Source: a virus
Taxonomy: Duplodnaviria; Caudoviricetes
Reading direction: 5' to 3' (one strand)
IMG/VR virus record: IMGVR_UViG_3300034073_003276
DNA length: 64,000 nucleotides
Shown: piece by piece, positions 31,370 to 50,354 of the stretch
Layout: each line of letters opens with the position of its first letter
Position numbering within the stretch: position 1 is the first letter of the stretch
Notes under the pieces: model-generated
Told to the model about the DNA's origin: nothing
The model's database searches: none
The model's input: only the letters and a program-made list of their open reading frames with translations
Translations under genes and position numbers: made by a program

Positions 31370-31370
31370 A

Positions 31371-32087
31371 TTATACTTGATACTTAGAATTATCTTTTGC
31401 AAGATGAATTATTTTAGGTAAGAACTTACAGTAATCAGAAAAAACTTCTGGATAGGCATATTCTGGTCCTAGAGTATTAATCTTATCCTTATTTTCAATA
31501 AAGTATTTGTTTAGATGACTTTCATCATGCCAAAGTGCAATGACGTTATTTTTAAGATCTTTATTAGTTCTATCACAGAGTTCATCAATCATTTCAAAAA
31601 CTTCTGGGACTTTACCACCCCACAAACATCCCTGATAGTATACCGTAGGAATTTCTTTTTCAGTATCTACATATGCAAGAGATAATGGATTAGTTTCAAA
31701 TGCACCAGGAAGTTTATTATGTGGGGGCATTCCAAGATTATGGCAGGGATGCCAAACACCAAACAAAGGTTTATCTGAGAAAAAGTCTTCCTCTAAAACC
31801 TTATCAATAACGAGAGTATCAGCATCAAGGAAAACCAACCAGTCATTGTTAGCAATTTCTTCTCTGGCTTTGTTAAGAATCTCAAAGCGAGTAAGCGTGA
31901 TATATGGCCAGTCAAGGTGTTCTTGTGGATATACTTTAACATCTTCTGGGAAATCTCCTTCTCCATCAGTAAATACTAAAAAAGTCTTCTCCGTATTTGG
32001 AAGAAAATTCTCATGAATCTTTTCATAATACTGTGGAAAAAAGTTTAGGTATTTAGATGTTCCAATAAATGCAATTGCGACTTTCAT
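31371..32087 (-). CDS. GT6 (ABO-type alpha-1,3-Gal/GalNAc transferase) glycosyltransferase
   Basis: IAFIGTSKY..F, WPYITL.RF, FLDAD (DxD), YYQGCLWGG, WHDESHLNKYF. Confidence 0.88.
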   Translation of the reverse strand: MKVAIAFIGTSKYLNFFPQYYEKIHENFLPNTEKTFLVFTDGEGDFPEDVKVYPQEHLDWPYITLTRFEILNKAREEIANNDWLVFLDADTLVIDKVLEEDFFSDKPLFGVWHPCHNLGMPPHNKLPGAFETNPLSLAYVDTEKEIPTVYYQGCLWGGKVPEVFEMIDELCDRTNKDLKNNVIALWHDESHLNKYFIENKDKINTLGPEYAYPEVFSDYCKFLPKIIHLAKDNSKYQV

Positions 32088-32878
32088 TAAATTATCACCC
32101 AATTTTCAGGAATTAAATCTTTAGTATCTAAATGCTCATTGTTTGAACCTTTAAACCAACCAGAAGGAGCAACAACCTTTTCACTATTCGATAACCATGC
32201 ACCCCACCAACTAAAAGAACTATTAGCAATAATATGTGCAGAACAAAGAGACATAAGACAAAGATCTAAAGCATTATTTTTAGTTTGAGAAACCATAAAC
32301 CTATCACCACTAAACAGACTATGATTTAAACACCACTCTGGATCATCAGAGAAAATTATAATTTCTCTATCATCATCAAACATATTCAAAGACTGTTCAT
32401 AATATTCAATTGGCAAAACCGTATGATTTGGATTAGTAACATAATCCATTCTACGAATGTGAAGAGCTACCGGTTTAGTCCAGTTAGAAACAACCTGTTT
32501 CGCAGGTTCTAGAATATTATCATGAAACTGAAAGTCAGTCAATATCTCTTCACGAATATGTTTAAAGTATTTCTCTGACTGAAAAAATCCCTGAAGAGTT
32601 ACCCAGTCTGGACAAGTTTCAAATAGTGTTTTATCAAAAGAAAAAGTTTCTTCAGCAACAATTGGACGATCTATATCAATGTATTGATAGTTTAAAGATG
32701 TCAAAGTTGACATTCTAAACACGGAATTCAATTGATGATCTGTCCATTCATTTTGATTTTTAGATTTTGGAATACAAATATTATATCCACGATTTGTAGC
32801 AATGCCTTTTAGAGATGCATATTGAAACATTTGATTTCCAAGTCTGCCAAGTTGTCCTAATGAATTAAATCCAATCAT
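32087..32878 (-). CDS. GT11 alpha-1,2-fucosyltransferase-like
   Basis: GRLGNQMFQYA, GFFQSEKYF, ALHIRR.DY, IFSDDPEWC, IIANSSFSWWGAWL. Confidence 0.9.
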   Translation of the reverse strand: MIGFNSLGQLGRLGNQMFQYASLKGIATNRGYNICIPKSKNQNEWTDHQLNSVFRMSTLTSLNYQYIDIDRPIVAEETFSFDKTLFETCPDWVTLQGFFQSEKYFKHIREEILTDFQFHDNILEPAKQVVSNWTKPVALHIRRMDYVTNPNHTVLPIEYYEQSLNMFDDDREIIIFSDDPEWCLNHSLFSGDRFMVSQTKNNALDLCLMSLCSAHIIANSSFSWWGAWLSNSEKVVAPSGWFKGSNNEHLDTKDLIPENWVII

Positions 32879-33822
32879 GATGCACCTATAACTTTTTCTA
32901 CATTTGGAATATAATATTTTTCAATAATGTTTTCCCACTTAAATTGTTTTGAATATTCCAGTATTTCTTTTCTATGAGATACTGAATATTCCCTATTTCT
33001 TTTCAATACAGATTCAATATAAGTGATATCTTCAATCTTATTTTCTGGAATCACATCAATAAAATCTTTTGTTGTATCTAAATTTGCAGTTCCATATTGA
33101 CTTACAACTACCCCTAAACCACATGACAATGCCTCCATACACACTAGTGGATGTGCTTCACCATCACTTAGGAGCGCAAGATTTCCATAATGTGTAAGAT
33201 TTTTATATAAAATATCTTTACTCCATTCACCCAAATAATTTTTATTGGGATTGAATCTTTGATCTGCAATGTTACCTGCATACCAAAGACTATCAATAGA
33301 CTGAAAAAGATGTTGTCTCTTACGATAATCAATCTTAGCAAGGTAGATTGATCTATCTGGATACTTTGGGGAATCAGTATGACTAAAAGCCTCAGTGTTT
33401 ACTCCATTAGGAGTTACAAAGAGTTTCTCTGTAGACATACCCAACATAATTTGATATATTTTAGAAATACCTTCAGATAAACAAAAGATATTTGGTTTAA
33501 TTTGACCAAAAGCATTGAATACATTCACATATCCATTAAACATTTGTGGTTGTTCCAGATATCCAAAGTGACTTGTGATTGCTTTTGGATATTGAATATA
33601 TGGATATATACTAATAAATTCATCATAATGAACATGAACAAAGTCTGGTCTAAATTGATTGACTTCTTCAATAATTTGATTGAAATCTTTTGTGTTAACA
33701 ATTTGAACTGTGTGCCCTAAATTCTCTAGAGCATTTTTTGTATCCCAAATAAGAATCTCAACGGCACCCCATCCACTAGGAGGAATTGGCATAATTCCTG
33801 GACCGACTAGCGTAATTTTCAT
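32875..33822 (-). CDS. GT-B fold (GT4-like) glycosyltransferase
   Basis: IPPSGWGAVE, TPNGV, EAHPLVCMEALSCGLGVV. Confidence 0.8.
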   Translation of the reverse strand: MKITLVGPGIMPIPPSGWGAVEILIWDTKNALENLGHTVQIVNTKDFNQIIEEVNQFRPDFVHVHYDEFISIYPYIQYPKAITSHFGYLEQPQMFNGYVNVFNAFGQIKPNIFCLSEGISKIYQIMLGMSTEKLFVTPNGVNTEAFSHTDSPKYPDRSIYLAKIDYRKRQHLFQSIDSLWYAGNIADQRFNPNKNYLGEWSKDILYKNLTHYGNLALLSDGEAHPLVCMEALSCGLGVVVSQYGTANLDTTKDFIDVIPENKIEDITYIESVLKRNREYSVSHRKEILEYSKQFKWENIIEKYYIPNVEKVIGAS

Positions 33823-34625
33823 TGCTTACCAAGCTCCGTAAAAAGAGACATATGCTTCCCGTTATATCTCTCATAAATTTCATAATCATCTGGATTTTGT
33901 TTTACCAAATATCCAAGTGCGATTTGTTCGTTGTTTACAAATCCATTTGAAATCATTTTGTTCAAAAGAATATCTTCAACATCCTCACCGACTTTCAAAA
34001 TCTTATCAGCGGTGCCACCAAACATAGATCCCAAAACATAAGAACGATTATCTAAAAGATAATCTTCGGTCAATAGATCTACATTTGCCAGATCTTTATA
34101 ATACTCCATATTCATTTGAATAAGAAACTTATCTCCCATTTCTTCTAGTGCTTCAACAGCGGCAGAACTTGGATACTCCAAAGATAAATCATATCCTTCA
34201 AAAAATCTTGAAGCACCAGCGTCCAACCAAAAGAAAAACTTACTGTTAAAGGTATTTTCCTCAATCGCCTGCTTTAACCACTTAAACTTAGAATATTGAA
34301 TGATAGAATACATTGAGTATTGGCATTCAATTCTTGAAGGATCTAAGATTTTATCTTTATACTCCTCAGAATTAATAATCGCATCCAATTGGTCTTTTAG
34401 ATACTGATAAGGAACCTCATCAACCGACTGAACAATAATATCCGTTGGAATATTTACTCTTCGTTCCTCAACAAAAGAAACAATATCTTCTGTGACGAAC
34501 AAAATCATTGGGCACTTTAATTGGAGTGTAATGTCAAACCACTTCAGATATTCTTCCCAAAATCTTCCATCCATTCTATCTCTTCCAATATTAAAGAGAG
34601 ATGTTACGATTGTTACTTCCTTCAT
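33819..34625 (-). CDS. HtrL/YibB (WlaTC)-like glycosyltransferase
   Basis: VTIVTSLFNIGR, YSIIQYSKF.WL..AI..N.F.S..F.WLDAG, NNEQIAL. Confidence 0.75.
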   Translation of the reverse strand: MKEVTIVTSLFNIGRDRMDGRFWEEYLKWFDITLQLKCPMILFVTEDIVSFVEERRVNIPTDIIVQSVDEVPYQYLKDQLDAIINSEEYKDKILDPSRIECQYSMYSIIQYSKFKWLKQAIEENTFNSKFFFWLDAGASRFFEGYDLSLEYPSSAAVEALEEMGDKFLIQMNMEYYKDLANVDLLTEDYLLDNRSYVLGSMFGGTADKILKVGEDVEDILLNKMISNGFVNNEQIALGYLVKQNPDDYEIYERYNGKHMSLFTELGKQ

Positions 34626-35584
34626 ACTAAACTCATAATAGATTGAATACGATTTACATATGTGTGATTTTCTTTTACATAAAGCATTGCTTTCTTTATA
34701 TATTCATAATCCAAACGCTTATTCATAGCATCACCAAACATTAAAGAGGTGTCTGGAGAATATAAACAATTCCCTTCCAGTTCCTTAAAAACTTCTTCAG
34801 AATTAGTTGTCCCCAAGTGACCCCAACTGATTGATTTGAAAACTCTGCAGGGGACATATCCGTTATTAATATGTTCTGGACCACGAATGTCAACACCAAG
34901 AATTGATTTTTTAGTTCTAAGAATAACCTCTTCTTCACTTAGAGGATTTGCAAAAGGATCATTATGAATGAATTCTACACCATTCTTATGGCATTCTTCA
35001 ATAAAAGGTTTGAAGGTGCTGTAGTTTTCACAACGTCCATGAGTAGAAATATTACCGCTAAAATAGATTTTATTTTCACGAGGATAATAAATATCTTCCA
35101 AATTAAACTCTTCAGGAAGATAATTTGTTGCCCAAGTCACATAAAACTTATCATAATCCTCAATCCAATATTGGTGATAGTCATTCAAAACTTGGACTCT
35201 GCGATTTTTTCTTTCTTGTAAGTAACAACAAGGTCCAACTTCTATGACTTTATCCTTATCTAAGGTATAATCGTAAACGTGGTCTTTATGCCATAAATGA
35301 TTATAACGAACATCAATAAACTTCTTAACACCAGCATTAATATACTTTGCCGGATCCGGGCAAACGTGAACAAAATAAGTGCTGTTTTTATTTAAAGGAA
35401 TATTTTTATCAGCAAATCCTTCAGTCCAGAAAACACAATCATTCCAATCAAAATCTTCAGGATATTCTCCATCGTGAAACCAATAAGTCTCATAACCAAG
35501 ATGAGTAAATGCCTTATAAAAAGCAGCGTGAATATAAGAGTGGGTGTGGGAATGTAATGGATATCCCCAAATAACGACCTTCAT
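34622..35584 (-). CDS. Putative glycosyltransferase (GT-B-like)
   Basis: VVIWGYPLHSHTHSYIH...YVPCRVFKSISWG...HTYVNRI resembles CgeB/spore-maturation type C-termini. Likely start MKVVIW. Confidence 0.5.
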   Translation of the reverse strand: MKVVIWGYPLHSHTHSYIHAAFYKAFTHLGYETYWFHDGEYPEDFDWNDCVFWTEGFADKNIPLNKNSTYFVHVCPDPAKYINAGVKKFIDVRYNHLWHKDHVYDYTLDKDKVIEVGPCCYLQERKNRRVQVLNDYHQYWIEDYDKFYVTWATNYLPEEFNLEDIYYPRENKIYFSGNISTHGRCENYSTFKPFIEECHKNGVEFIHNDPFANPLSEEEVILRTKKSILGVDIRGPEHINNGYVPCRVFKSISWGHLGTTNSEEVFKELEGNCLYSPDTSLMFGDAMNKRLDYEYIKKAMLYVKENHTYVNRIQSIMSLV

Positions 35585-35585
35585 A

Positions 35586-36233
35586 TCAAACTCCAGGATT
35601 GTAAATGACAAGAACTACATTATCACCCCTCTCATCACCCAAGGATATGTTTTCACTTCTCCTCAAATCCATAATTTTGTATTGATATCCCTTTAGAATT
35701 TCGTTGATAAGTCCTTTCATATATGGATGATCACAAAGTTCATCACCTTCCAAATCATATTCCCAGTCAATAGGAATGTCTTCAATGAACATATACCCAT
35801 TAGTTTTTAATTTGGGCAAATAATATCTTATTGCAGCAATTTGGGATTCATATGTGTGGGGTCCATCATCAATAATCAAATCCATATCAGGAAGTTTATT
35901 TGATACTTCCTTATCATATGCATTCCCAATATGGAGAGTAACATCTTTAAGAGGATCATCTATCAGAGACTGTGCTATTTTTCTATGATTTTGATTTTGA
36001 AAAATATCCAAACCATAAATTTTTGCTTTAGAAAAATATTCTCTCCAAAGTCTTAAAGAAGAACCTGTCGCAACTCCAATTTCCAGAAGATTAATTTTAT
36101 CATCTCTAAACTCAAAGAAGTATTCTTCATAAACATCTTTGATATAGGAATGATAGGTATTTTTATCGCAAGAAATTTCTTGCGAGTGGTCATCATACTT
36201 TTTGTCAACATAAATTTCATAAAGTGTTTTCAT
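35586..36233 (-). CDS. Class I SAM-dependent (sugar O-) methyltransferase
   Basis: LLEIGVATGSSL..W..YF..A.IYGLDI, DLIIDDGPH, GYMFIED. Confidence 0.8.
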   Translation of the reverse strand: MKTLYEIYVDKKYDDHSQEISCDKNTYHSYIKDVYEEYFFEFRDDKINLLEIGVATGSSLRLWREYFSKAKIYGLDIFQNQNHRKIAQSLIDDPLKDVTLHIGNAYDKEVSNKLPDMDLIIDDGPHTYESQIAAIRYYLPKLKTNGYMFIEDIPIDWEYDLEGDELCDHPYMKGLINEILKGYQYKIMDLRRSENISLGDERGDNVVLVIYNPGV

Positions 36234-36241
36234 TTTTTTAC

Positions 36242-36874
36242 CTAGGAATTTTTAATAACGTCTATTACAAGTTCACTGCCCTGCAGCATTTTATCTACCC
36301 AAAAAGTAGTTCCACAATACCTTTCTGGTTTATGGATTTCAACATAATTTTCTGGCGGATTGACAATATTATATCCGTAAATATTTTTAATTACCCTACC
36401 AGTTCTATCACTATCATGACAGGCAATAATAGGTGCATAACCAAAAGCAAAATTAACTATATCTCCCCTATTATGAATTCCTGGATCAACAAAAATTATA
36501 TCATATTCATATTCTTTCATGAAAGGAGTGACAATATTTTCCAATACTGAAAGATACTCAGTATCATCTAATGGATACTTATTATCAATTGCATTTTGAT
36601 TAGCATCAATTATTTCTTGTGGTAAACTAATATATTTACATTCCCAGTTATCATAGTTTTTCAGTTTTTCTTTTGTTTTATTTGTCCACTCTAAGTTGAA
36701 ATCACTAACAGATAATTCAACAGATTTTACTTTCTTGATATTATCACACCAAAATTCTGTTCCGAGTCCTAGTCCAAATTCAAGAACAGAATTTAGTTCA
36801 ATATACTCAAATAATTTTGCAAAATAGGGGACCCAATCTTGTGCTTGCGTCAATTCATATTGTTTCTTTTGCAT
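36242..36874 (-). CDS. Methyltransferase-fold hypothetical protein
   Basis: SVLEFGLGLGT and YDIIFVD motifs. Confidence 0.5.
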   Translation of the reverse strand: MQKKQYELTQAQDWVPYFAKLFEYIELNSVLEFGLGLGTEFWCDNIKKVKSVELSVSDFNLEWTNKTKEKLKNYDNWECKYISLPQEIIDANQNAIDNKYPLDDTEYLSVLENIVTPFMKEYEYDIIFVDPGIHNRGDIVNFAFGYAPIIACHDSDRTGRVIKNIYGYNIVNPPENYVEIHKPERYCGTTFWVDKMLQGSELVIDVIKNS

Positions 36875-36876
36875 AA

Positions 36877-37893
36877 TTAAAAACTCCTATAAAACATTTT
36901 CCACAAATTCAATGACTTGTTTTTCAAATATTTAGACCCCTCCTCAAAGGATGAATCCATTGCTTCTTTATCAATTGACTTAAGAATATCTGGTATCTCT
37001 TCAAAAGAGTTAAAATAGAATCTACATCCACTTAAATTTGGATCATACCATTCACACCAATCAATCCAGTCTTTTTGCAAAAGATTAGCTCCACCAGACC
37101 CCCAAATATTAAAAAAGTAATTTGGACGCTTAGAAAGTTCGTAAAAGAAATCTTTAGAAGGAAGCAATACAGGGACTTTGGCGTGAATCAATTCAAAACA
37201 TAAAAACTTAGAAAATGCATCGGGCATCGTAATAAATGCCTTATATTTTTTTAGTTGATCAATAAATCTAAATCCACCATTATAGACAGATATTCCTTTA
37301 CCAGTCAGATACTCACCCATCTTAAAAAAGATATTATCATTATGATATATTGGAACATAAACTTCAGCGTCTGGAAGTTCAAAACTTTCGCCATACATCT
37401 CTTTAAAGTATGCAGTTTCTGGAATGCTATTTTCAATAGAATATAAGTTAATTCCACAAGGAGGAATATGTTCCCTGTCCATTATATCAGTTCCCTTTTC
37501 TTTACACCAAACTTTTTCAAAGAAACTATAAGGAACTATCTTTATATTTGGATTCTGTTCCGCTCTACTAAAGAGTTCATAGAACCTAGTCTGGTCCTCC
37601 ATCCTATAGTCAAACCTATTACAAACCCAAATAACAAGCTTTGACTCAAACTCGTCTTGGTTTTCTAAAAATATCCGTGATAGTGGCGCTGTATCAGATG
37701 TAACGATATAGTCAAACTCATTCAGTTGGTCTTTATGGTCTTTCCAAAAAGTATCTGCAATCTCTTTAGTAATTTTAAATTGACCATCATAAAACTTATG
37801 GTTAGTTACTTCAAACCCTAGTTCATTAAGAACGTAGTGCTGATCTCTAAAACAACCAATGTGATGAGATATATGTAAAACTTCTTTAGTCAT
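36877..37893 (-). CDS. Hypothetical protein, possible glycosyltransferase
   Basis: 338-aa ORF inside the glycan operon; no diagnostic motif recognised. Confidence 0.45.
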   Translation of the reverse strand: MTKEVLHISHHIGCFRDQHYVLNELGFEVTNHKFYDGQFKITKEIADTFWKDHKDQLNEFDYIVTSDTAPLSRIFLENQDEFESKLVIWVCNRFDYRMEDQTRFYELFSRAEQNPNIKIVPYSFFEKVWCKEKGTDIMDREHIPPCGINLYSIENSIPETAYFKEMYGESFELPDAEVYVPIYHNDNIFFKMGEYLTGKGISVYNGGFRFIDQLKKYKAFITMPDAFSKFLCFELIHAKVPVLLPSKDFFYELSKRPNYFFNIWGSGGANLLQKDWIDWCEWYDPNLSGCRFYFNSFEEIPDILKSIDKEAMDSSFEEGSKYLKNKSLNLWKMFYRSF

Positions 37894-38705
37894 AAATTCG
37901 CTTCTTTGGATAATGAACTTTTAGTTACTGTTACTATGTCAACAATTTTGTTTATCGGAATATTGTTTATTCTAACATACTTATCCAATAATATTTCAGG
38001 AATAAAATCTATATTATATGAATAATAAAGTGCCGGAATATAAAGAAAGCAATCTGAATATGTATTCATAATGTCGGAAGAAGAAAATGCAAACAAATCA
38101 CACATACTCAATTCACTTCCTTTATGACTACCTCTATTAAAAACATTTAAAACTTTAGTATCAAAACTACTAAGATCTATTCCTTTATTAAAACAAATAT
38201 CTGTTCTATTTCTTATTACAACATCATACTTAAATTCATTTTGATATTCATATAACTTTTTAAGTTCATTCGATTTGTGTATAGAATAATATTGAGACAG
38301 AACTTTATATGGCTCACATCCATAATGCCATAGTTTCAATACTTCCTTTTCTTTCAAAAAACTAAAATTATTTTTTGCAGAAGCAGGCAAAAATAATTTC
38401 TTATTCTCACCAAGACTTTCCAACTTTTTCCTATTACGCTCCAAATCTTCTTCATATTCTTCTTTTGTTATTTTAGAGTTTATGAAATCATATGGGTTAA
38501 TTTCAAACGACTTCGGTTTTTCTACAAATAAAAACTTTGGTTTCAAATATTCTTTAGCAAATTTAATCTCAGATGAATACTCATCAACATCCCATGTATG
38601 AATAAAGTAATCAACCTCATTCTCTTGAACAATACTATTCTGAAAGTTGACAATATTAGATTGAATATCCCTTAGAAATCCACTATAACAAACTGCTATT
38701 TTCAT
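37890..38705 (-). CDS. Putative glycosyltransferase-like protein, paralogue A
   Basis: MKIAVCYSG.LR, D.FIHTW, YDVVIRNRTD. Confidence 0.55.
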   Translation of the reverse strand: MKIAVCYSGFLRDIQSNIVNFQNSIVQENEVDYFIHTWDVDEYSSEIKFAKEYLKPKFLFVEKPKSFEINPYDFINSKITKEEYEEDLERNRKKLESLGENKKLFLPASAKNNFSFLKEKEVLKLWHYGCEPYKVLSQYYSIHKSNELKKLYEYQNEFKYDVVIRNRTDICFNKGIDLSSFDTKVLNVFNRGSHKGSELSMCDLFAFSSSDIMNTYSDCFLYIPALYYSYNIDFIPEILLDKYVRINNIPINKIVDIVTVTKSSLSKEANL

Positions 38706-39472
38706 ATATCACTATATTGCAATGTCTTATGAAGAATATCTACGTCAGGTCTCCTTACAACTTTATGTATTATATCGACCATATAGTTCTTTTTAAGATT
38801 CACGGACTTTAAATGGTGGTCAAACAAAACTTCTCCAACAAAACAACACTTATCATTGAAATAATAATAAGGTATATGTAAAAATTCTTCTACAGATAAA
38901 ATAATATTTTTTTGGCTTGATATGGTTATCATTTCAGAAAAAAAGTTTTCTATTATAGAATGTGTTGGATTCGTATCTAAATCCCACCTAGTAGCATTAA
39001 TTAGATTTAAGTCTAGTGAACTAATATCCAAAACACTATCAAAAAGAAGATCAGATCTCATACAAACTACCATATCATATTCAACGTCGTTGGTATGGCA
39101 ATACTGCTGAAGTAGTTGAGAAGACATAAATCTTGAATAATGAAAACTCAATAACTGATATGGTCTGCAAGTATACCATCCACTACCAGATATTTTTCTA
39201 AGTTTTGAGTAGTCTCTTAAATCGTTAAAAGTAGAAAATACTATCTGATAGTATGGATTTTTTTGAAAATCTTTAGACTCCTCTATTAATATTGATTTTG
39301 GTTTTACTACATTCTTTACATACTCAATTTGTTTTTTTTGATATTCATCTCCTGTCCATGTATGAACAAAAAAGTCAACATCATGCTCATCCAAAGAAAA
39401 AAACTTTTTGTGAGACTCAAATGTTTCTGTTATGGATCTTAGGAATCCGTTATAACAAATTGCAATTTTCAT
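38702..39472 (-). CDS. Putative glycosyltransferase-like protein, paralogue B
   Basis: MKIAICYNG.LR, DFFVHTW, YDMVVCMRSD. Confidence 0.55.
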   Translation of the reverse strand: MKIAICYNGFLRSITETFESHKKFFSLDEHDVDFFVHTWTGDEYQKKQIEYVKNVVKPKSILIEESKDFQKNPYYQIVFSTFNDLRDYSKLRKISGSGWYTCRPYQLLSFHYSRFMSSQLLQQYCHTNDVEYDMVVCMRSDLLFDSVLDISSLDLNLINATRWDLDTNPTHSIIENFFSEMITISSQKNIILSVEEFLHIPYYYFNDKCCFVGEVLFDHHLKSVNLKKNYMVDIIHKVVRRPDVDILHKTLQYSDI

Positions 39473-40161
39473 AGACTGTCCAAAATAGTTTTAATCATAT
39501 GGTTGAGACCTTGTTCTCTCTCAATACTACTCATCTGCTCACCACCAATAAGATGATCAGAAACTGTATTAACAGAAAGTGCTTTCTTAGAAAAGCGATT
39601 AGCAATACTGTATAAAACGTGAGTTTCCATATCAACTGCTAACACACCCATTTCCATAAATGGTTTGTGCCAGTTAGAATCTGGTTGATAAAAATAATCA
39701 TTGGATACCATTTGCCCAACGTGTGCATCACTATTAACCTTCATATATTTACTAAGAAGGTTGTAATCGCAACAGGGAGAGAGTTTAAAACCAGGTATCA
39801 GATTTTCAGTCATAGCATTATCAGTAGCAGCAGTCATAGCAACAACAACATCTCCAACTTTGAGATTTGGAGAAATACCACCACAACTACCAACTCTGAT
39901 TATATTTTCAACATCATAAAAATTATAAAGTTCGTGGGCATAAATTCCAAGACTTGCTTGCCCCATTCCACTCGCCTGAATAGATACTGGTTTACCATTA
40001 TAAGTTCCAGTATATCCTAGACAATTGCGAACTTTATTAACAATATTATATGTCTCTAAAAAGTTTTCAGCAATCCACTTTGCTCTCAATGGATCACCAG
40101 GCATAAGGACTGTCTTGTGATATTGTCCAGGTTTTGCTTCAATGTGCGGGGTCATTTGCAA
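39469..40161 (-). CDS. deoD: Purine nucleoside phosphorylase (DeoD type)
   Basis: TPHI.A, VLMPGDPLRAKWIA, GYTG.Y.G..VS...SGMG, IIRVGSCG, DMET, TVSDHL. Confidence 0.92.
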   Translation of the reverse strand: MQMTPHIEAKPGQYHKTVLMPGDPLRAKWIAENFLETYNIVNKVRNCLGYTGTYNGKPVSIQASGMGQASLGIYAHELYNFYDVENIIRVGSCGGISPNLKVGDVVVAMTAATDNAMTENLIPGFKLSPCCDYNLLSKYMKVNSDAHVGQMVSNDYFYQPDSNWHKPFMEMGVLAVDMETHVLYSIANRFSKKALSVNTVSDHLIGGEQMSSIEREQGLNHMIKTILDSL

Positions 40162-40723
40162 TAATTTGATAGATTTCTTTCCAGTTTTTTACACGCAGAC
40201 CATTCCATTGTTTGTTATACGGATGATCCATTAATATACTTGTAAGTCCTACTCTTTTACCAGATTCTGCATTACTCACAGAATCCTCAATCCAATAATA
40301 CTTCTTTCCCTTGTATCTGTCAAGAAGATAATCTTCTTTACCTTTAGTAAAATCTAAGGCACAATCAATAAAATCAAATACCTCACCAAATAAATGAATT
40401 AAATTATTTTGTCTCAACTTTTGAGCGTACTTATCCTTATCAAGACAACTAATTACGTCAAATCTCCATCCCAAATTATTCAGTTTACCAATATATTCTA
40501 CAGAATCTCTAAATGCAGGAATAAATCCTATACATCCAGACTCGTTAAAAGACTTAACTTGGCGATATGATTCTTCATCAGTTATTCCATATCTTAGTGA
40601 TTGACTATAGTATTGATCAGTATCTGCAATTCTTTGATATCCATGCTCACCCATCCACACATCAAATGCATATGCCCAATCTAAAAGAACTCCATCACAA
40701 TCGACGATTATTTTTTTATCCAT
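40139..40723 (-). CDS. HAD-superfamily phosphatase (5'-nucleotidase-like)
   Basis: IVDCDGVLLDW (DxD motif I), WIEDS, LMDHPYN. Confidence 0.8.
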   Translation of the reverse strand: MDKKIIVDCDGVLLDWAYAFDVWMGEHGYQRIADTDQYYSQSLRYGITDEESYRQVKSFNESGCIGFIPAFRDSVEYIGKLNNLGWRFDVISCLDKDKYAQKLRQNNLIHLFGEVFDFIDCALDFTKGKEDYLLDRYKGKKYYWIEDSVSNAESGKRVGLTSILMDHPYNKQWNGLRVKNWKEIYQIIANDPAH

Positions 40724-41438
40724 GTATAAACTTATTAATTTGGTCCCAGGTACCTAGGTCAACATAATCATCAACTTCAATAGCCTTTGACTTATATATT
40801 GGAGTATTTTTAATTTCGCCAACAAGAAGTCGGTGTTTTAATGTTGACTTTTCCATAAACTCAATACAGTTATCAAAAACTCTCTTCCTAAAGGCAAATG
40901 CAGTCCAGAAAGCATTAAATTTATTCATATCATCCTGAGGCTTATCTTCATACTCTTGAACTAAATTGTCATCATCAATATACAAAGATCCTTTAGTTTT
41001 TAACATATCACTATCAGTTTCCTTCTTAAAGAAAAAAGTAAATCCAGTTTCATTCAAACTATCACTTACAAGTTTAACAATATCTTGAGATGATTTTAAT
41101 CTTAAAAAAGTGTCGGGGAGAAGAACAAGATTCTTTTCACCAAATAAATGCTTTGCACTTTTGATCGATCCAGTGTACTCCGTTTCTGTAGGATTAAAAA
41201 ATGTAAATGAAATATTAAATCTAGACTTGTATCTACTCAAATACTTCAGTATTTCAGTTTTATTTTCATTAAGAGTGATTACAAACTCAACATCTTTGCG
41301 ACCATAATTTGAAAATAAATCGAAACTATAGTCAATAAGAGATTTATTCTTTTCAATGGAATGAACTTCTTTTGGATATGGTAAAGAAAGACGAGTTCCT
41401 TCTCCAGCACATGGAAGAATAACAGTAAGATTAGACAT
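40716..41438 (-). CDS. Sugar-phosphate nucleotidyltransferase
   Basis: VILPCAGEGTRL..PYPKE, YEDKP, DLGTWD. Likely start MSNLTV. Confidence 0.8.
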   Translation of the reverse strand: MSNLTVILPCAGEGTRLSLPYPKEVHSIEKNKSLIDYSFDLFSNYGRKDVEFVITLNENKTEILKYLSRYKSRFNISFTFFNPTETEYTGSIKSAKHLFGEKNLVLLPDTFLRLKSSQDIVKLVSDSLNETGFTFFFKKETDSDMLKTKGSLYIDDDNLVQEYEDKPQDDMNKFNAFWTAFAFRKRVFDNCIEFMEKSTLKHRLLVGEIKNTPIYKSKAIEVDDYVDLGTWDQINKFIHG

Positions 41439-42732
41439 TTTTTTTAATAATATAATTATCAATAACTTCTTCTATGTATTCTATCATAGAATCTGTAATT
41501 GTGGGAGAACATCCAACGAAAAAGACATTATCTAAAACCTTCATAGCATTTGGATAATTAAATGCAGATTCAAGGTATCTATACGCTGGATGAATTAAAA
41601 GATTACCTGCAAAATAATTTCGAGTTTGAATTTTATTTTCTTCCAAAAATTTAACTATATCAGATTTATCACCATCACAAATAATAGGAACACCAAACCA
41701 ACTTGTCTCGGCGTGTGGCAATTCATCTATGCTACGAACTCCAGGAATCTTTTCAAATATTTTTTGAATTCTTAATTTATTAAGTCTACGAATATAGTGA
41801 ATTTCATCAAACTTTTTAATCTGAACAGATCCAATTGCTCCGAGCATATCAATTGGTTTTAAATTATATCCAATATTTCCAAACACATACTTGTGGTCAA
41901 CGACTTTATCATATCCAACTAACCAATTATCAAATCTTTTACCACAAGTACCACAACTTAAAAGATTTTGAGAACCTACACAATAACAATCTCTACCCCA
42001 CCAAGCAAAACTACGAGCAATATCTACAACTTCTTTAATATTAGATGATACCATTCCACCTTCAATGGTAGTAATATGATGTGCAGGATAAAAAGAACAA
42101 GAAGCGGCAACAGCGTGATCTGTAAGATATTTTCCCCTCCACTTACTACCAAGACTATCACAATTGTCTGCTATCAAATGAAGATTATATTCATCACAAA
42201 TATTTAAAACCTTATCATAATCATAAGGATTGGCAAGAACGGGAGATGAAAATATTGCTCGTGTTTTTGAAGTAATTTTTTTACAAACTTGATCTAAATC
42301 CCAATTAAGATCTTTATAATCAATATCTACAAATACTGGTTTTAAATTATTTTGAATGATTGGATTAAGAGTTGTAGGAAACCCACAGACAGACACGATT
42401 ATTTCATCACCATCATTCCAACCAAAATATTTTTTAAGTGCAGCAATCATTATAAGATTTGCAGAACTTCCAGAATTAACCATTACTGAATGATTAAAAT
42501 TAAATTTTTTAGAAAATTCTTTTTCAAATTTATTAACTTCTTCTCCAGATGAAAGCCATTTTCCAGTTAAAAAAGTTTTAAGTGCTGCCTCAATTTCTTG
42601 ATTGTCCCAATACGGTCCAGAATAAAAGATATTACTTTCACCCTTTACATAATCGTTATTATAGAGATAAGGAAAGAAATTTTCTTGAGTATCAAATAAA
42701 TTGTCAATAAAATGTTTTACTTGTTCTTTCAT
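41431..42732 (-). CDS. rfbH: CDP-4-keto-6-deoxy-D-glucose 3-dehydrase (E1, DdhC/RfbH)
   Basis: DegT fold with SFYPAHHITT (His replacing the Schiff-base Lys) and Fe-S cysteines in DNCDSLG, GRDCYC, TCGKRF. Confidence 0.85.
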   Translation of the reverse strand: MKEQVKHFIDNLFDTQENFFPYLYNNDYVKGESNIFYSGPYWDNQEIEAALKTFLTGKWLSSGEEVNKFEKEFSKKFNFNHSVMVNSGSSANLIMIAALKKYFGWNDGDEIIVSVCGFPTTLNPIIQNNLKPVFVDIDYKDLNWDLDQVCKKITSKTRAIFSSPVLANPYDYDKVLNICDEYNLHLIADNCDSLGSKWRGKYLTDHAVAASCSFYPAHHITTIEGGMVSSNIKEVVDIARSFAWWGRDCYCVGSQNLLSCGTCGKRFDNWLVGYDKVVDHKYVFGNIGYNLKPIDMLGAIGSVQIKKFDEIHYIRRLNKLRIQKIFEKIPGVRSIDELPHAETSWFGVPIICDGDKSDIVKFLEENKIQTRNYFAGNLLIHPAYRYLESAFNYPNAMKVLDNVFFVGCSPTITDSMIEYIEEVIDNYIIKKNV

Positions 42733-42737
42733 TTTTT

Positions 42738-43580
42738 TTAGTTATCATTACATAATTTAGTTAATCCTTGCTCCAGTTTAATAAAATTAAAATTTTCAAA
42801 AGATTTAATTTTATTAATATTAAGAGTACTATTTTTTACTTGAATAAATTTTTGATTTTTTGGAAATGGGACTTCAACCAAATTACTTTGACTTTTTATC
42901 AATTCTCTTGCATTAATAATAATATCTTTAAATAAAAATGATTCTCCAGATGCAATATTATAAATCTCATTTACATGACTTTTATCAATTAAAGTATAAA
43001 TTACTCTACATATATCTTCAACAAACATATAATCCTTTAAAAATTTACCACCTTCGTAAAGATTAATATCTTGATTTTTTTTAAGGAGTTCAATCATAAA
43101 CCCAAGAACATTTTTACCTGGTGATATTGTTTTATCTAAACCGTAAACATTCCCAATTCTGAAAATTCTATACTTAATTCCGAAAGTTTCGCAAAAGGAG
43201 ATTAAGAGTTGTTCGGCACATCTTTTAGTAATTGAATAAAATCCAGTTGGATTGCAACAATCAGTTTCTTTAGCATCTATTATATCATTACCATAAACAA
43301 AACCTGAACTGATAAAATTAAAAGTTATGTCTTTGTCTTTACAGTTGTTTAAAATATCAACAAATAAACTTAAATTTGTATCAATATCAATATGCAAATT
43401 TGTAAAAATGCTTTGATTTGTTGTTGTACTTATAAAATACAAGACTTCTTGGGTTTTTGGATATTTACTTCCTCTCGGTATAATTACAACTTGGTCAGAA
43501 AACAATTTGCAAAATGTTCCTCCAATAAATCCAGTCCCACCAAACACTGATATTTTATTCATACTTTTCACAATCTTCAA
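42738..43580 (-). CDS. NAD-dependent epimerase/dehydratase (extended SDR), possible NDP-4-keto sugar reductase
   Basis: VFGGTGFIG, ISSGFVYG, YSITK (YxxxK), RIGNVYG. Confidence 0.85.
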   Translation of the reverse strand: MKIVKSMNKISVFGGTGFIGGTFCKLFSDQVVIIPRGSKYPKTQEVLYFISTTTNQSIFTNLHIDIDTNLSLFVDILNNCKDKDITFNFISSGFVYGNDIIDAKETDCCNPTGFYSITKRCAEQLLISFCETFGIKYRIFRIGNVYGLDKTISPGKNVLGFMIELLKKNQDINLYEGGKFLKDYMFVEDICRVIYTLIDKSHVNEIYNIASGESFLFKDIIINARELIKSQSNLVEVPFPKNQKFIQVKNSTLNINKIKSFENFNFIKLEQGLTKLCNDN

Positions 43581-44118
43581 AAGTAAATCCTACTTCATCT
43601 TTATTAGACAAAATTGGATTTGAAACTTTCCAATCAACATTTAAAGTTTTATCATTCCATAACAAAGTTCTTTCATGTTCAACATATTGGTAATCAGTAA
43701 CCTTATAAAGAACCTCTGCAGTGGAAGACAAAACAGAGAATCCATGAGCAAATCCAGGAGGAACCCATAGTTGATAAAGACCTGGTTTTAAATGAACACC
43801 AATCCATTTTCCAAATGTTTGAGAACTTTGGCGAAGATCCACAATCACATCATAAATTTCTCCAGATAAACATCGAACAATTTTTCCTTGAGCATGATCG
43901 ATTTGATAATGCAATCCACGTATTACATTTTTTGTAGATACTGAATGACAATCTTGGACAAATTCATACTGTCCAATAATTTTTTGAACTTCTTGAAGAT
44001 TGAAAGACTCTGTAAAAGAACCTCTATGATCTTCATACACTCTCGTTGTAAAAAGATATGCGTCTTTAAGTTCAGTTTCTATTGCGTTCATACCACTCAA
44101 TTGCTTTTTGTAATCCAT
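43555..44118 (-). CDS. rfbC: dTDP-4-dehydrorhamnose 3,5-epimerase family (RmlC)
   Basis: D.RGSF.E, QD.HSVS...VIRGLHYQ, QGKIVRC..GEIYDV.VDLR, LWVPPGFAHGF. Confidence 0.9.
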   Translation of the reverse strand: MDYKKQLSGMNAIETELKDAYLFTTRVYEDHRGSFTESFNLQEVQKIIGQYEFVQDCHSVSTKNVIRGLHYQIDHAQGKIVRCLSGEIYDVIVDLRQSSQTFGKWIGVHLKPGLYQLWVPPGFAHGFSVLSSTAEVLYKVTDYQYVEHERTLLWNDKTLNVDWKVSNPILSNKDEVGFTFEDCEKYE

Positions 44119-47074: not shown

Positions 47075-47146
47075 TGGGCGAAGAGGGATTCGAACCCCCG
47101 ACTGCCTCGGTGTAAACGAGGAACTCTACCACTGAGTTATTCGCCC
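47075..47146 (-). tRNA. tRNA-Val(TAC)
   Basis: Cloverleaf; anticodon arm CCTCG-TTTACAC-CGAGG; TTCGAAT T-loop. Confidence 0.92.
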
Positions 47147-47153
47147 TAAAAAG

Positions 47154-47463
47154 TCAAGATTGACTTAAAAGGTATTCTACCGTATTTGCTACATCATTCA
47201 TAGCATCACGAAGATTTTCTCTTTGACCCGATTCTTGCTTACGAATCGGTCTTGAACTATCAGTGAGAGTCCAACGCCACTGATTCATATCCTTACAATA
47301 CCACAAATTAATTTTCATTCTTCGATTGCTCTAGTTTAATCCAATTAATTAGAGCATTGATTTCCATTTTTTTCTCTTCAGTAAAATCAAATTGTTTATT
47401 GAAGAGATAAAAATCAAGTGCTTCAACAGCAAGTTTTCTATCTTTTTGGGAAATAAGAGACAT
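47154..47463 (-). CDS. Two small hypothetical ORFs (47154..47318, 54 aa; 47308..47463, 51 aa)
   Basis: Hand translation; overlapping start and stop. Confidence 0.5.
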
Positions 47464-47541
47464 AAACCTCCTAACTCGTTTCTTATTATACTAAAAAAGG
47501 GAGTTGTTGTCAACCCCCCAATTCACACTATGTAGTGATTA

Positions 47542-49011
47542 TCAGAACTTAAAGGTTGTCTGAATTACACCGCCCCAATTAGAGGAGTTGCCAACAAGAC
47601 GCTGGTTGTCACTACCGTAGATGATAGCAGGAGTGACACTGATGTTATCAGACACTTGATACTTGTAGAAAAATTCAAGCATCGTGGACTTCTCAAGGTT
47701 AGAACCAGTAGGTGCTTGACCAATAGCAACACCAGCGGAGTTGCCATCAACAAACACATCATCCCAAGTCAGACCAGCAAACCAGGATTGGCTGTTGGTA
47801 GCAGCACTCTTAGTACCACTCACGGTATTCCAACCATAACCACCAGAGATGGAGGGAACCCAACCAGATTGGGTTGGTTGCCAATATGCGTTCAGAGCAT
47901 ATCCATTGGAGGTTTGACCAGGAACCAGAGTGCCCGAAGCACCATTCAGACCATTATAGGTGCGAACACGGGTGCCTTCTGTGCCATAACGATATCCGAA
48001 AGCAGCACCCCAGTTAGTACCGCGATATCCAACTTGTGCCAAAGTATTCAGAGCACCAGAGCGATCAAACTCACCAGTCGAACTATCAGCACCGTTTTGT
48101 GCCACATAGTTTACACCAGCAACAAGACCTTTCTTACCATACTGGATACCAAAACCAGAACCAGTTGCCTTGTTATAAACACCAGGAGCACCAGCAACAG
48201 CAAAGAAGTCAAGAATACCAGACTTATATGCGGTAGGCATCCAAGCAATTTCAGTGTTACGAACCAGAGCACCAGCAGTCAGAGTTGCTTTGTTATTGAA
48301 AGCAGGGAACTGATAGTACAGACGGTCGATTACAACTTCGTTGCCACTATCACCAGTGGTGTTGTCTGCCTTATCCAGTTTGAAGATAGATGAACTGGAA
48401 CCGAAAGGATTGCTGCTGAAGTTAGCAGAACGTAGACGGGTCTTGAGAAGATCTTTACCAGTGAATGAGGTATCCAGGTTCAAACGCAGGTCATAGTTGA
48501 ATGCAGTATGAGTTACATCACCTTTCTTGGTTTGATACTTATCAACACCACCGATTACGAAGTTTGCTTCACCACGCAGTTTGGTAGTGGTAGAGAATTG
48601 GGTTGCTTCAAGTTCTGTAACTTGTGCTTCCAGACCATCTACACGACCTTTGAGAACTGCGAGTTCGGCAGCAAACTCATTAGCAAGACGCTTGAGTTCG
48701 TCAGTGACTTCAGTTACACGATCAAGGCAAGCATTCAGAAGTGCTGCTGCCTCATAGCGAGTCATAGCACGACCACCACGGAAAGTGCCGTTAGGATATC
48801 CTGCTACGCAACCATATTGCTCTACAAGATTGCTAAGTGCCTGATATGCCCAATCGGTTGGTTGGACATCGGAGAATTGAGTAACACTCGTAACCTGTTC
48901 TGAGGAAGTATATTGGTTGACTGCTGCCATATTAAGATCTGCGGCATTCGCAGCAACAGGAGCAACCATTCCCAGAGCAACAGGTGCGAGCATCAGTTGT
49001 TTGAGTTTCAT
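47542..49011 (-). CDS. Cyanobacterial outer-membrane porin (SomA/B type: signal peptide, SLH domain, OprB-like barrel)
   Basis: FSDVQPTDWAYQAL..LVE.YGCVAGYPNGTFRG.RAMTRYEAAA (SLH), QFSTTTKL.GE, C-terminal TTFKF. Confidence 0.92.
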   Translation of the reverse strand: MKLKQLMLAPVALGMVAPVAANAADLNMAAVNQYTSSEQVTSVTQFSDVQPTDWAYQALSNLVEQYGCVAGYPNGTFRGGRAMTRYEAAALLNACLDRVTEVTDELKRLANEFAAELAVLKGRVDGLEAQVTELEATQFSTTTKLRGEANFVIGGVDKYQTKKGDVTHTAFNYDLRLNLDTSFTGKDLLKTRLRSANFSSNPFGSSSSIFKLDKADNTTGDSGNEVVIDRLYYQFPAFNNKATLTAGALVRNTEIAWMPTAYKSGILDFFAVAGAPGVYNKATGSGFGIQYGKKGLVAGVNYVAQNGADSSTGEFDRSGALNTLAQVGYRGTNWGAAFGYRYGTEGTRVRTYNGLNGASGTLVPGQTSNGYALNAYWQPTQSGWVPSISGGYGWNTVSGTKSAATNSQSWFAGLTWDDVFVDGNSAGVAIGQAPTGSNLEKSTMLEFFYKYQVSDNISVTPAIIYGSDNQRLVGNSSNWGGVIQTTFKF

Positions 49012-49071
49012 ATAGTTTGTTAAGAATTACAACTACAAGGTTTATTTAGACGCTCCAGGAATTATGGAGCA

Positions 49072-49143
49072 AGCGGAATAGGGGATTCGAACCCCTGACG
49101 TTCAGCTTGGAAGGCTGACATTCTACCACTGAATTAATTCCGC
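49072..49143 (-). tRNA. tRNA-Gly(TCC)
   Basis: Anticodon arm TCAGC-CTTCCAA-GCTGA. Confidence 0.92.
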
Positions 49144-49190
49144 AAGTGTGGGAGATTGCTCTCCCAACGCACTTCCTTCGCACAAGAGGA

Positions 49191-49219
49191 AATATAAGAC
49201 AAATATTATGATTTGTCAA
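49191..49219 (-). promoter_or_regulatory. Sigma70-type promoter upstream of tRNA-Gly and the porin
   Basis: TTGACA-17 nt-TATATT. Confidence 0.65.
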
Positions 49220-49291
49220 GCCCCCGACAAGATTTGAACTTGCGACAACCGCTTTACAAAAGCGGTGCTCTACCAACTGAGCTACAAGGGC
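49219..49291 (-). tRNA. tRNA-Thr(TGT)
   Basis: Anticodon arm CCGCT-TTTGTAA-AGCGG. Confidence 0.92.
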
Positions 49292-49445
49292 GAAAGGTGA
49301 TGAGTGCCCATCACCCGCAGAAGACACTTTCTGCGATTTTCACTGCATTAGAGGGCAGTGAATAAGAGAAGTAAGTCTCTGGCGAAGAATCGCCGTGAGC
49401 GTCATACTTCAATTTGAAAGAATCGGACATTTCCAACCCTTTCAA
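49292..49445 (-). ncRNA. Putative structured non-coding RNA (six hairpins, complementary loops); family not recognised
   Basis: Six near-perfect hairpins fill the Asn-Thr spacer; G-U pairs work only on the minus strand. Confidence 0.7.
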
Positions 49446-49518
49446 CTCCCCCACCTGGACTCGAACCAGGAACCCCAGAGTTAACAGCTCCGTGCTCTGC
49501 CAATTGAGCTATAAGGGA
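49446..49518 (-). tRNA. tRNA-Asn(GTT)
   Basis: Anticodon arm CGGAG-CTGTTAA-CTCTG. Confidence 0.92.
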
Positions 49519-49544
49519 ATGGTTTGGAGAATAAAATCTCCAAG

Positions 49545-49618
49545 TCGGGATGACAGGATTCGAACCTGCGACTTCTCGCTCCCAAAGCGAGTGCTCTACC
49601 AAACTGAGCTACATCCCG
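49545..49618 (-). tRNA. tRNA-Pro(TGG)
   Basis: Anticodon arm CTCGC-TTTGGGA-GCGAG. Confidence 0.92.
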
Positions 49619-49706
49619 TGGCGGAGAAGGTGAGATTCGAACTCACGGAGGCTTGCACCTCGTCGGTTTTCAAGACCGATGCCATCAACCACTCGACCAC
49701 TTCTCC
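49619..49706 (-). tRNA. tRNA-Ser(TGA), CCA encoded
   Basis: Anticodon arm TCGGT-CTTGAAA-ACCGA; long variable arm. Confidence 0.92.
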
Positions 49707-49804
49707 AATTTGATGGATTAAGTGTAATATATCTCATAAGGATATAACAGGGACTTAACCTCTATCAGTTTTATATATTAACAAACTCTTGCGAATTTGT
49801 CAAG

Positions 49805-49878
49805 CGTCCTTTGAGAGATTCGAACTCCCGACACATAGGTTCGTAGCCTACTGCTCTATTCCACTGAGCTAAAAGGAC
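49805..49878 (-). tRNA. tRNA-Arg(ACG)
   Basis: Anticodon arm GTAGG-CTACGAA-CCTAT. Confidence 0.92.
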
Positions 49879-49881
49879 AGG

Positions 49882-49953
49882 CGAAGGGTGAGGGATTTGA
49901 ACCCCCATCGCAAGGTTTTGGAGACCTGCATCTTACCATTAGACCAACCCGAC
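49882..49953 (-). tRNA. tRNA-Trp(CCA), imperfect acceptor stem
   Basis: Anticodon arm CAGGT-CTCCAAA-ACCTT; two mismatches in the acceptor stem. Confidence 0.75.
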
Positions 49954-49956
49954 AGG

Positions 49957-50028
49957 TTCTGAGGGTAGGATTCGAACCCACGAATGGCGGGACCAAAACC
50001 CGCTGCCTTACCACTTGGCGACCTCAGA
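49957..50028 (-). tRNA. tRNA-Gln(TTG)
   Basis: Anticodon arm GCGGG-TTTTGGT-CCCGC. Confidence 0.92.
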
Positions 50029-50029
50029 A

Positions 50030-50103
50030 TGGGGTGTCGTAAGGGAATCGAACCCTCATATGGAGAACCACAATCTCCTGTCTTACCATTAGACTAACGA
50101 CAC
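50030..50103 (-). tRNA. tRNA-His(GTG), CCA encoded
   Basis: Anticodon arm GGAGA-TTGTGGT-TCTCC; C73. Confidence 0.9.
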
Positions 50104-50104
50104 A

Positions 50105-50176
50105 AGGCAGTGGGTAGAATTGAACTACCGACATAGAGGGTATGAATCTCTTGTTCTACCACTGAACTACACTGCC
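50105..50176 (-). tRNA. tRNA with CAT anticodon (elongator Met or Ile2)
   Basis: Anticodon arm AGAGA-TTCATAC-CCTCT; G1-C72 is paired, so not an initiator. Confidence 0.8.
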
Positions 50177-50179
50177 AAA

Positions 50180-50264
50180 CGGAGAGTAGAGGATTCGAAC
50201 CTCTGGTGCTGTTACACACAAGACCTTTCCAAGATCTCACCATAAACCACTCGGACAACTCTCC
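50180..50264 (-). tRNA. tRNA-Ser(GGA)
   Basis: Anticodon arm AGATC-TTGGAAA-GGTCT; long variable arm. Confidence 0.9.
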
Positions 50265-50268
50265 AAGG

Positions 50269-50351: not shown

Positions 50352-50354
50352 AAG

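Follow-up and report, generated by a model that had tools for sequence, protein, structure and literature searches.

The cassette and its proposed pathway

Three adjoining minus-strand genes, NTPt, HAD and deoD, lie at positions 39469-41438 of a 64,000-nucleotide stretch of DNA from a cyanophage (IMG/VR record IMGVR_UViG_3300034073_003276; the whole stretch is referred to as the window) and encode a predicted sugar-1-phosphate nucleotidylyltransferase, a HAD phosphatase and a purine nucleoside phosphorylase. Their linkage across viral contigs, the identity of the phosphorylase and a bacterial relative of the transferase point to a self-contained cassette that would make an activated pentofuranose donor from nucleotides, a reading to which a probability of about 0.55 is given. 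In the proposed pathway the NT5C-like HAD would strip the 5′-phosphate from a purine (deoxy)nucleoside monophosphate, DeoD would use phosphate to cleave the nucleoside into the free base and α-D-(deoxy)ribose 1-phosphate, NTPt would couple this pentose 1-phosphate to a nucleoside triphosphate (NTP) to give a nucleoside diphosphate (NDP)-(deoxy)ribofuranose, and the NDP-pentose would be used as a donor by a phage transferase that varies between phages. We infer the substrates, the NTP that is used, the choice between ribose and deoxyribose, the position of the HAD before or after the phosphorylase, the acceptor and, as the source of the nucleotides, degraded host nucleic acid. A more specific proposal, held tentatively and at somewhat less than even odds, is that NDP-ribofuranose or NDP-2-deoxyribofuranose is made straight from purine nucleotides released during infection and serves the Leloir-type pentofuranosylation of host surface glycans, virion proteins or DNA.

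The original prediction, made by a model from the letters of the window alone, had described the three genes as overlapping one another and as lying between dideoxy-sugar genes and glycosyltransferase (GT) genes, and both points were borne out (Table 1). The true starts of NTPt and deoD are likely to be the ATG codons at 41438 and 40155, slightly inside the longest open reading frames (ORFs). The upstream rfbH-like gene overlaps NTPt by 8 nt, NTPt overlaps HAD by 8 nt, HAD overlaps deoD by 17 nt and deoD overlaps the next gene (g256) by 4 nt (ATGA). All four junctions therefore overlap, by 4-17 nt, and NTPt, HAD and deoD are translationally coupled. The trio is flanked by rmlC, an SDR gene and the rfbH-like gene on one side and by the GT run on the other. 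The rfbH-like gene is treated as context outside the cassette, though it overlaps the start of NTPt in the window.

Linkage across viral contigs

IMG/VR was seeded separately with NTPt, deoD, HAD and a broader NTPt alignment, and the operon proteins of the window were mapped onto every locus recovered. This yielded 36 contigs with an NTPt of at least 53% identity, three of which end inside the cassette, leaving 33 that could be assessed. The order NTPt-HAD-deoD was kept in 32 of these, down to 55-62% identity, and was the same whichever of NTPt, deoD or HAD served as the seed. The deoD-seeded search gave the triad in 9/9 loci, including copies at 55-62% identity, and HAD copies of at least 69% identity, together with those of L020 and L030/L031 (55-56%), always stood in the triad. 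In two lineages, extra ORFs between NTPt and HAD (L007 and L009) or between HAD and deoD (L018) left the cassette order intact. The L007 insert is found again at another place on its contig (cluster 46), a sign of a possible small mobile ORF.

At least 11 differing gene orders were found around the triad. A GT11 gene was its most frequent upstream neighbour and methyltransferase genes were also frequent neighbours; rfbH and SDR genes adjoin the cassette on four contigs only (the window, L015, L016 and L019), and the 2-oxoglutarate (2OG) oxygenase and DegT-fold genes near the cassette in the window were not conserved partners across contigs. Because the trio is constant and its flanks are variable, NTPt is tied to HAD and deoD and not to the dideoxyhexose genes. 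The claim that the trio forms one unit was thus upheld, and the conserved order argues for a functional unit beyond chance neighbourhood. A link to GT genes, which had also been claimed, was found on most contigs, where the triad sits among such genes; it was not found on L030/L031, on which the triad comes after a DnaE-like polymerase gene, or on L020, on which it comes before a RecA-like gene, there being no recognisable GT in these loci. The triad lies outside a glycan island on these contigs and the acceptor there could be other than a surface glycan.

Within phage contigs deoD was found only in the cassette. A tblastn search of the isolate-phage collection with deoD returned Firmicutes and enterobacterial records only, which resemble host contigs; a megablast search of the same collection with the region gave no match, and none of 50,697 phage records carried the transferase in a tblastn search with NTPt. 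Lone HAD relatives (38-47% identity) occur in other phages in uninformative contexts (clamp loader, PhoH and radical SAM genes). Such sequences are abundant: at E ≤ 0.001, word-indexed searches recovered 415 clusters (90% identity, one representative each) for NTPt and 403 for HAD, mostly from aquatic metagenomes.

Identity of the three proteins

DeoD scored 278.5 bits with NCBIfam model NF004489 (cut-off 230) and 246 bits with TIGR00107 (cut-off 232) and aligned over its full length with the solved structures of Bacillus and E. coli purine nucleoside phosphorylases (PNPs; E = 1.5e-63), residues 1-227 matching 2ac7/1xe3 and E. coli 1ecp-type chains. Invariant in nine divergent phage copies were H4, G20, R24, R43, M64, R87, F155, M176, E177, D200 and R213; these include the equivalents of His4, Arg24, Arg43, Arg87, Glu181, Asp204 and Arg217, the phosphate, ribose and base residues of E. 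coli PNP. His4 contacts the 5′-OH of the nucleoside. Enzymes of this type catalyse phosphorolysis to (deoxy)ribose 1-phosphate and a base. An assignment as a methylthioadenosine/S-adenosylhomocysteine (MTA/SAH) nucleosidase was tried and rejected (62 bits versus a cut-off of 169), whereas the DeoD cut-offs were passed. In agreement with the original prediction, the sequence identifies a bona fide DeoD-type phosphorylase, which would release (deoxy)ribose 1-phosphate.

The HAD protein matched Pfam NT5C marginally (28.4 bits versus a cut-off of 24.8), this being the sole Pfam family above cut-off; it scored 105 bits with phrog_420 and gave no match to PDB sequences. HAD motifs I-IV are intact, with D8, D10, K129, E146 and D147 invariant in 21 sequences, in which the S/T motif follows strand 87-91. 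The AlphaFold2 (AF2) model had a predicted local distance difference test (pLDDT) score of 93. Its best fold match in VIA was the deoxyribonucleotidase-like entry 3bwv (Z = 19.2, root-mean-square deviation (rmsd) 2.4, 163 residues aligned), and comparison with the mitochondrial and cytosolic 5′(3′)-deoxyribonucleotidases mdN and cdN gave Z = 16.2-16.7 over 179-181 of the 194 residues. The top Foldseek E-values included the pentose-phosphate phosphatases AlnB, CbbY and pseudouridine-5′-phosphatase. A predicted nucleotidase acting before DeoD is preferred over a bisphosphate or post-transfer role, because a kinase is missing from the cassette and the DeoD residue in contact with a free 5′-OH is retained. 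Either order of the HAD step yields the same NDP-pentose product.

NTPt scored 33.7 bits with Pfam PF00483 (NTP_transferase; cut-off 21.2) and carries the G-x-G-T-R signature near its N-terminus, with G12, G14 and R16 invariant in the phage copies and the Mg and phosphate residues D109, K166 and D227 conserved family-wide. The AF2 model (pLDDT 96) aligned with GalU over 222 of 240 residues (Z = 21.4, rmsd 2.7) and also matched RmlA (Z ∼20) and GlmU (Z ∼19.9), so that by its modelled fold NTPt is a predicted sugar-1-phosphate nucleotidylyltransferase. Its score with the rmlA_long equivalog was 22 bits and did not reach the cut-off of 320, no RfbF or GalU equivalog model was listed at E ≤ 0.01, and PDB sequences gave weak IspD/GalU profile matches only (≤37 bits). 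Despite the common fold, the family, which comprises 415 clusters at 50% identity, is thus separate from GalU, RmlA and GlmU by sequence. Some relatives carry a MobA-like label. In one metagenomic relative (P0308, 566 residues), Pfam places a radical-SAM/SPASM domain fused N-terminally to the NTPt-family transferase.

Bacterial relatives of the transferase

Bacterial relatives were taken from a pattern scan with one genome per species; the pattern was derived from the smaller alignment of distant NTPt relatives, the wider alignment being too divergent for pattern scanning. About 20 bacterial members of the NTPt family were obtained, with 105-212 bits against a phage-only profile versus ≤62 bits for other NTP transferases. 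No homologue of deoD or HAD lay within 6 kb of any of these ∼20. In a quick tree the phage clade was placed, with weak support, on the side of L086, L077 and actinobacterial members (one from Sphaerisporangium), and the DUF4422- and methyltransferase-linked clade was placed on the opposite side. DUF4422 proteins directly follow the NTPt-family genes in three unrelated bacteria (Table 1); DUF4422 presumably includes the galactofuranosyltransferase WbbI, which would suit a furanose theme.

The most informative context is that of L086 (1384-10561), from an uncultured Pseudovibrio sp. (CANLTN010000007.1), a marine alphaproteobacterium. It encodes, in order, a TauD-family dioxygenase, a Glycos_transf_3 protein (pyrimidine nucleoside phosphorylase family), a fusion of SHMT with a class-III aminotransferase, the NTPt homologue and a 411-residue LipN-like protein, followed by methyltransferases and an ATP-grasp-like ligase. 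Against the phage-only profile the NTPt homologue reaches 134 bits. This gene set matches the six-gene LipL/LipP/LipK/LipO/LipM/LipN core of the aminoribosyl-glycyluridine antibiotics. In that pathway LipL is a 2-OG oxygenase acting on uridine monophosphate and LipO a transaminase, LipP exchanges uracil for phosphate to give 5-amino-5-deoxyribose 1-phosphate, LipM joins this aminoribose 1-phosphate to an NTP to give NDP-aminoribose and LipN is the glycosyltransferase (PMC4902027); LipK is an SHMT-like transaldolase (PMC8072733). The LipP/LipM/LipN branch belongs to A-90289, caprazamycin and muraymycin biosynthesis (Chi et al., 2011, as reviewed in PMC4902027). One family member would thus, judging by its context, act on a pentofuranose 1-phosphate supplied by a nucleoside phosphorylase. 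The assignment of the phage NTPt to a presumptive LipM family was made through the gene-set context of L086 and the profile score of its transferase. L086 may itself be an undescribed nucleoside-antibiotic cluster of the MraY-inhibiting type outside the actinomycetes.

In L077 (1458-10114), from Clostridium cibarium, one operon encodes two ABC exporters, an APH-family kinase, an NTPt-family transferase, a LipN-like protein of 417 residues, a Cof-type HAD and an Orn/DAP-type pyridoxal-phosphate-dependent decarboxylase. This resembles a cluster for glycosylating a small molecule, with the transferase fed by a kinase and not by a phosphorylase. The LipN-like proteins of L086 and L077 are homologous (E = 1e-59), and no phage protein matched them as a LipN-like counterpart.

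Alternative readings

NTPt could be an ordinary hexose-1-phosphate (e.g. glucose-1-phosphate) cytidylyl- or thymidylyltransferase at the head of the dideoxyhexose branch, with HAD and deoD as unrelated, linked salvage genes. In the window its start runs into the end of the rfbH-like gene, with the SDR gene and rmlC beside it, its best folds are glucose-1-phosphate transferases (GalU, Z = 21.4; RmlA, ∼20), and a dideoxyhexose branch needs a source of NDP-hexose, for which no second transferase was seen in the operon. The linkage of NTPt to HAD and deoD nevertheless removes this most obvious ordinary reading, that of a dideoxyhexose transferase: rfbH and SDR genes adjoin the triad on four contigs versus HAD and deoD on 32/33, and salvage genes are unlikely to be kept with one transferase across 45% sequence divergence. 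The transferase is also far below every glucose-1-phosphate equivalog model, with PDB profile matches of ≤37 bits, and deoD is confined in phage contigs to the cassette, its matches in the isolate collection looking like host DNA. A hexose transferase is therefore considered unlikely. Somewhat less likely again is a cassette with the same NDP-pentose product in which the HAD is a GmhB/AfhF-like pentose-1,5-bisphosphate phosphatase, or a post-transfer phosphatase as in the modules of ribosyltransferases dependent on phosphoribosyl pyrophosphate (PRPP). Such a role is favoured by the VIA score with D,D-heptose-1,7-bisphosphate phosphatase, by the pentose-phosphate phosphatases among the top Foldseek matches and by the Afh pathway of other phages, in which a GmhB-like HAD makes arabinofuranose 1-phosphate from the 1,5-bisphosphate before the nucleotidyltransferase acts. 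It is opposed by the best match to a deoxyribonucleotidase-like structure (Z = 19.2), the longest alignments being with mdN and cdN, and by NT5C as the only Pfam family above cut-off; a kinase or nucleotide phosphorylase able to make a 1,5-bisphosphate is absent from the cassette, DeoD retains His4 as a contact to a free 5′-OH, and no specific kinship links the HAD of the window with RB69 gp51 (hhalign probability 0.6%). Least probable, and clearly improbable, is that the cassette makes no glycosyl donor and serves to remodel the nucleoside or nucleotide pool, to make a nucleotide-linked small molecule or, through DeoD, to clear an SAH/MTA-type by-product of methyltransferases. The triads beside DnaE-like or RecA-like genes, the frequent methyltransferase neighbours and the MobA-like labels would suit this; on the other side stand the DeoD scores (62 versus 169 bits for MTA/SAH nucleosidase, yet above the DeoD cut-off), the sugar-1-phosphate transferase fold of NTPt with its conserved D109, K166 and D227, and the position of the triad among GT genes on most contigs.

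Several observations weigh against a pentofuranose-donor cassette as such. In the fold comparison the HAD ties with GmhB (VIA Z = 16.8, rmsd 2.4, 149 residues aligned). On one contig (L171, 53% identity) NTPt stands next to a GT61 gene without HAD or deoD. The bacterial family is functionally mixed, its other members lying beside DUF4422, methyltransferase, SDR or APH-type kinase genes, and no phosphorylase was found within 6 kb of bacterial members other than L086. Between the phage NTPt and the LipM-like protein of L086 identity reaches just 32%, and support is weak (21) for the deep branch that unites the phage clade with the LipM-like one. Given a family of mixed function and an identity of 32%, pentose specificity is not simply transferable to the phage enzyme. 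Neither NDP-ribofuranose nor NDP-2-deoxyribofuranose is known as a natural glycosyl donor. Ribofuranose in glycans has been reported to derive from PRPP and not from an NDP-sugar (PMC11127046).

Relation to known pathways

The original prediction had held that no such pathway was described. This is contradicted by the LipP/LipM/LipN branch (PMC4902027) and by a phage route to UDP-arabinofuranose (PMC13326640). The predicted conversion of nucleotides to an NDP-pentose is retained as the best-supported reading of the cassette, while the novelty claimed for the logic of the pathway is not.

In both the Lip branch and the proposed phage pathway a phosphorylase would convert a nucleoside to a pentofuranose 1-phosphate, which a nucleotidyltransferase would couple with an NTP to an NDP-pentofuranose for a glycosyltransferase, and the phage NTPt belongs to the same sequence family as the transferase of the Lip-type cluster L086. 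They differ in the phosphorylase, which is a purine-specific DeoD of the NP-I type in the phage and a non-homologous NP-II/Glycos_transf_3 protein in the Lip branch. The phage cassette also lacks the dioxygenase, aminotransferase and transaldolase, so that its product should carry no 5-amino group; it has a nucleotidase-like HAD in addition, no LipN homologue was found and the setting is a cyanophage glycan island instead of an antibiotic cluster. The two appear to have arrived at one pathway logic by surrounding a homologous transferase with different enzymes.

The phage Afh pathway makes UDP-arabinofuranose for arabinosyl-5-hydroxycytosine DNA; its members are HY126 AfhE/AfhF, RB69 gp51-55 and DLP3 gp81-83, the GmhB-like HAD AfhF (RB69 gp51) converting arabinofuranose 1,5-bisphosphate to the 1-phosphate and the nucleotidyltransferase domain of AfhE (RB69 gp52:53) yielding UDP-arabinofuranose (PMC13326640). 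It resembles the proposed pathway in that a HAD phosphatase and a nucleotidyltransferase, both phage-encoded, turn a host pentose metabolite into an NDP-pentofuranose that phage transferases use. In contrast, the Afh pentose 1-phosphate comes from ribulose 5-phosphate: after an isomerase step a kinase forms the 1,5-bisphosphate and a 5-phosphatase acts on it, with no nucleoside phosphorylase, and the cyanophage cassette has neither a kinase nor an arabinose-5-phosphate isomerase. Specific relationships of the NTPt of the window to RB69 gp52:53 (hhalign probability 10.9%) and of its HAD to RB69 gp51 (0.6%) were rejected, both likenesses being at superfamily level only. Since the RB69 proteins are not specifically related, the cyanophage cassette would be an independent solution.

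Bacterial glycan ribofuranose is made by PRPP-dependent routes, through gPRT with a HAD phosphatase or through polyprenyl-phosphoribose (PMC11127046). These share with the proposed pathway the delivery of ribofuranose to surface glycans and a HAD-family phosphatase; they differ in that the donor is PRPP or undecaprenyl-phosphate-ribose, not an NDP-sugar, and in that there is no phosphorylase or nucleotidyltransferase. Should the cassette act in the proposed way, PRPP-dependent ribofuranose transfer would have a Leloir-type alternative. A small nucleotidyltransferase for a sugar phosphate or alcohol phosphate, coupled with an enzyme that supplies its phosphate ester, is also found in GmhB/HddC (heptose), AmgK/MurU and LicA/LicC. 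The bacterial NTPt relative of L077 likewise has an APH-family kinase as its partner, a role that falls to a phosphorylase in the phage.

Both the phosphorylase-to-NDP-pentose logic (Lip) and the making of an NDP-pentofuranose by a phage HAD and nucleotidyltransferase (Afh) are therefore already known. In the papers searched, neither phages nor glycan synthesis were found to have been credited with a phosphorylase-fed NDP-pentose route, and none linked cyanophages with a purine nucleoside phosphorylase. What would be new, and is on balance favoured from the sequences, is such a route in cyanophages, assembled from an NP-I phosphorylase, an NT5C-like HAD and a LipM-family transferase.

Neighbouring genes and genome setting

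The window derives from a T4-like cyanomyovirus, as marked by psbA, hli, nrdAB and 19 tRNA genes (Table 1); giant tail-fibre-like genes are also present, and the closest isolate over nrdAB is the Synechococcus phage S-SRM01 (81% identity). The operon is read on the minus strand from 44118 to 30578. It starts with rmlC, a short SDR gene, the rfbH-like DegT-fold gene and the cassette, and continues after deoD with four unknown proteins, a methyltransferase, g329, an HtrL-like protein, GT4, GT11, GT6 and GT25.

The Atlas neighbours of g256 were viral 'capsular polysaccharide biosynthesis'/DUF7796 clusters, which are taken as a lead only. In the other loci the gene after deoD is always coupled, and belongs to at least five families without detectable mutual similarity; c241 gave a faint signal with g256 (hhalign probability 22%). 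A conserved fourth cassette gene was sought across the loci and none was found, the downstream slot being filled by these families. Their variability fits interchangeable transferases, and g256 is a possible candidate user of the cassette product.

Apart from the operon, a 489-residue ORF at 47542-49011 (-), which adjoins the tRNA array, contains SLH and OprB carbohydrate-selective porin domains and is of the cyanobacterial outer-membrane porin type. A homing-endonuclease-like ORF (phrog_314; 57719-58465, minus strand) lies directly downstream of nrdB.

Table 1. Positions of the cassette genes, their neighbours and marker genes in the window, and of DUF4422 genes in bacterial loci
Feature	Position	Strand	Family match or remark
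NTPt, predicted sugar-1-phosphate nucleotidylyltransferase, 240 residues	40716..41438	(-)	PF00483
HAD phosphatase, NT5C-like, 194 residues	40139..40723	(-)	Pfam NT5C, phrog_420
deoD, DeoD-type hexameric NP-I purine nucleoside phosphorylase, 228 residues	39469..40155	(-)	NCBIfam
rfbH-like gene (E1 3-dehydrase/DegT-fold)	41431..42732	(-)	NCBIfam RfbH 366 bits, below cut-off 423
rmlC/SDR/rfbH-like block, upstream of cassette	41431-44118	(-)	
Unknown genes, methyltransferase(s), GT4/GT11/GT6/GT25, downstream of cassette	30578-39472	(-)	
g256, 256 residues, coupled to deoD	38702..39472	(-)	ATGA overlap; phrog_13607; weak DUF7796
g271, 271 residues, tandem paralogue of g256	37890-38705	(-)	phrog_13607; weak DUF7796
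g329, protein without known function	34622-35611	(-)	
psbA	28377-29513		
hli-type gene	30269-30490		
tRNA genes (n = 19)	47075-51237		
nrdA/nrdB and primase	58526-63020		
DUF4422 genes (bacterial loci)	L071:6733-7530; L072:6710-8179; L074:2138-2929		

Implications

If the proposed pathway is true, marine and freshwater cyanophages would count a nucleoside phosphorylase among their auxiliary metabolic genes, and the turnover of nucleotides at the time of infection would be linked directly to glycan or other modification chemistry. A route to an NDP-linked pentofuranose donor would then extend beyond antibiotic biosynthesis and the arabinosyl-DNA phages, and three small soluble enzymes would be at hand for the one-pot synthesis of NDP-pentoses from cheap nucleotides.

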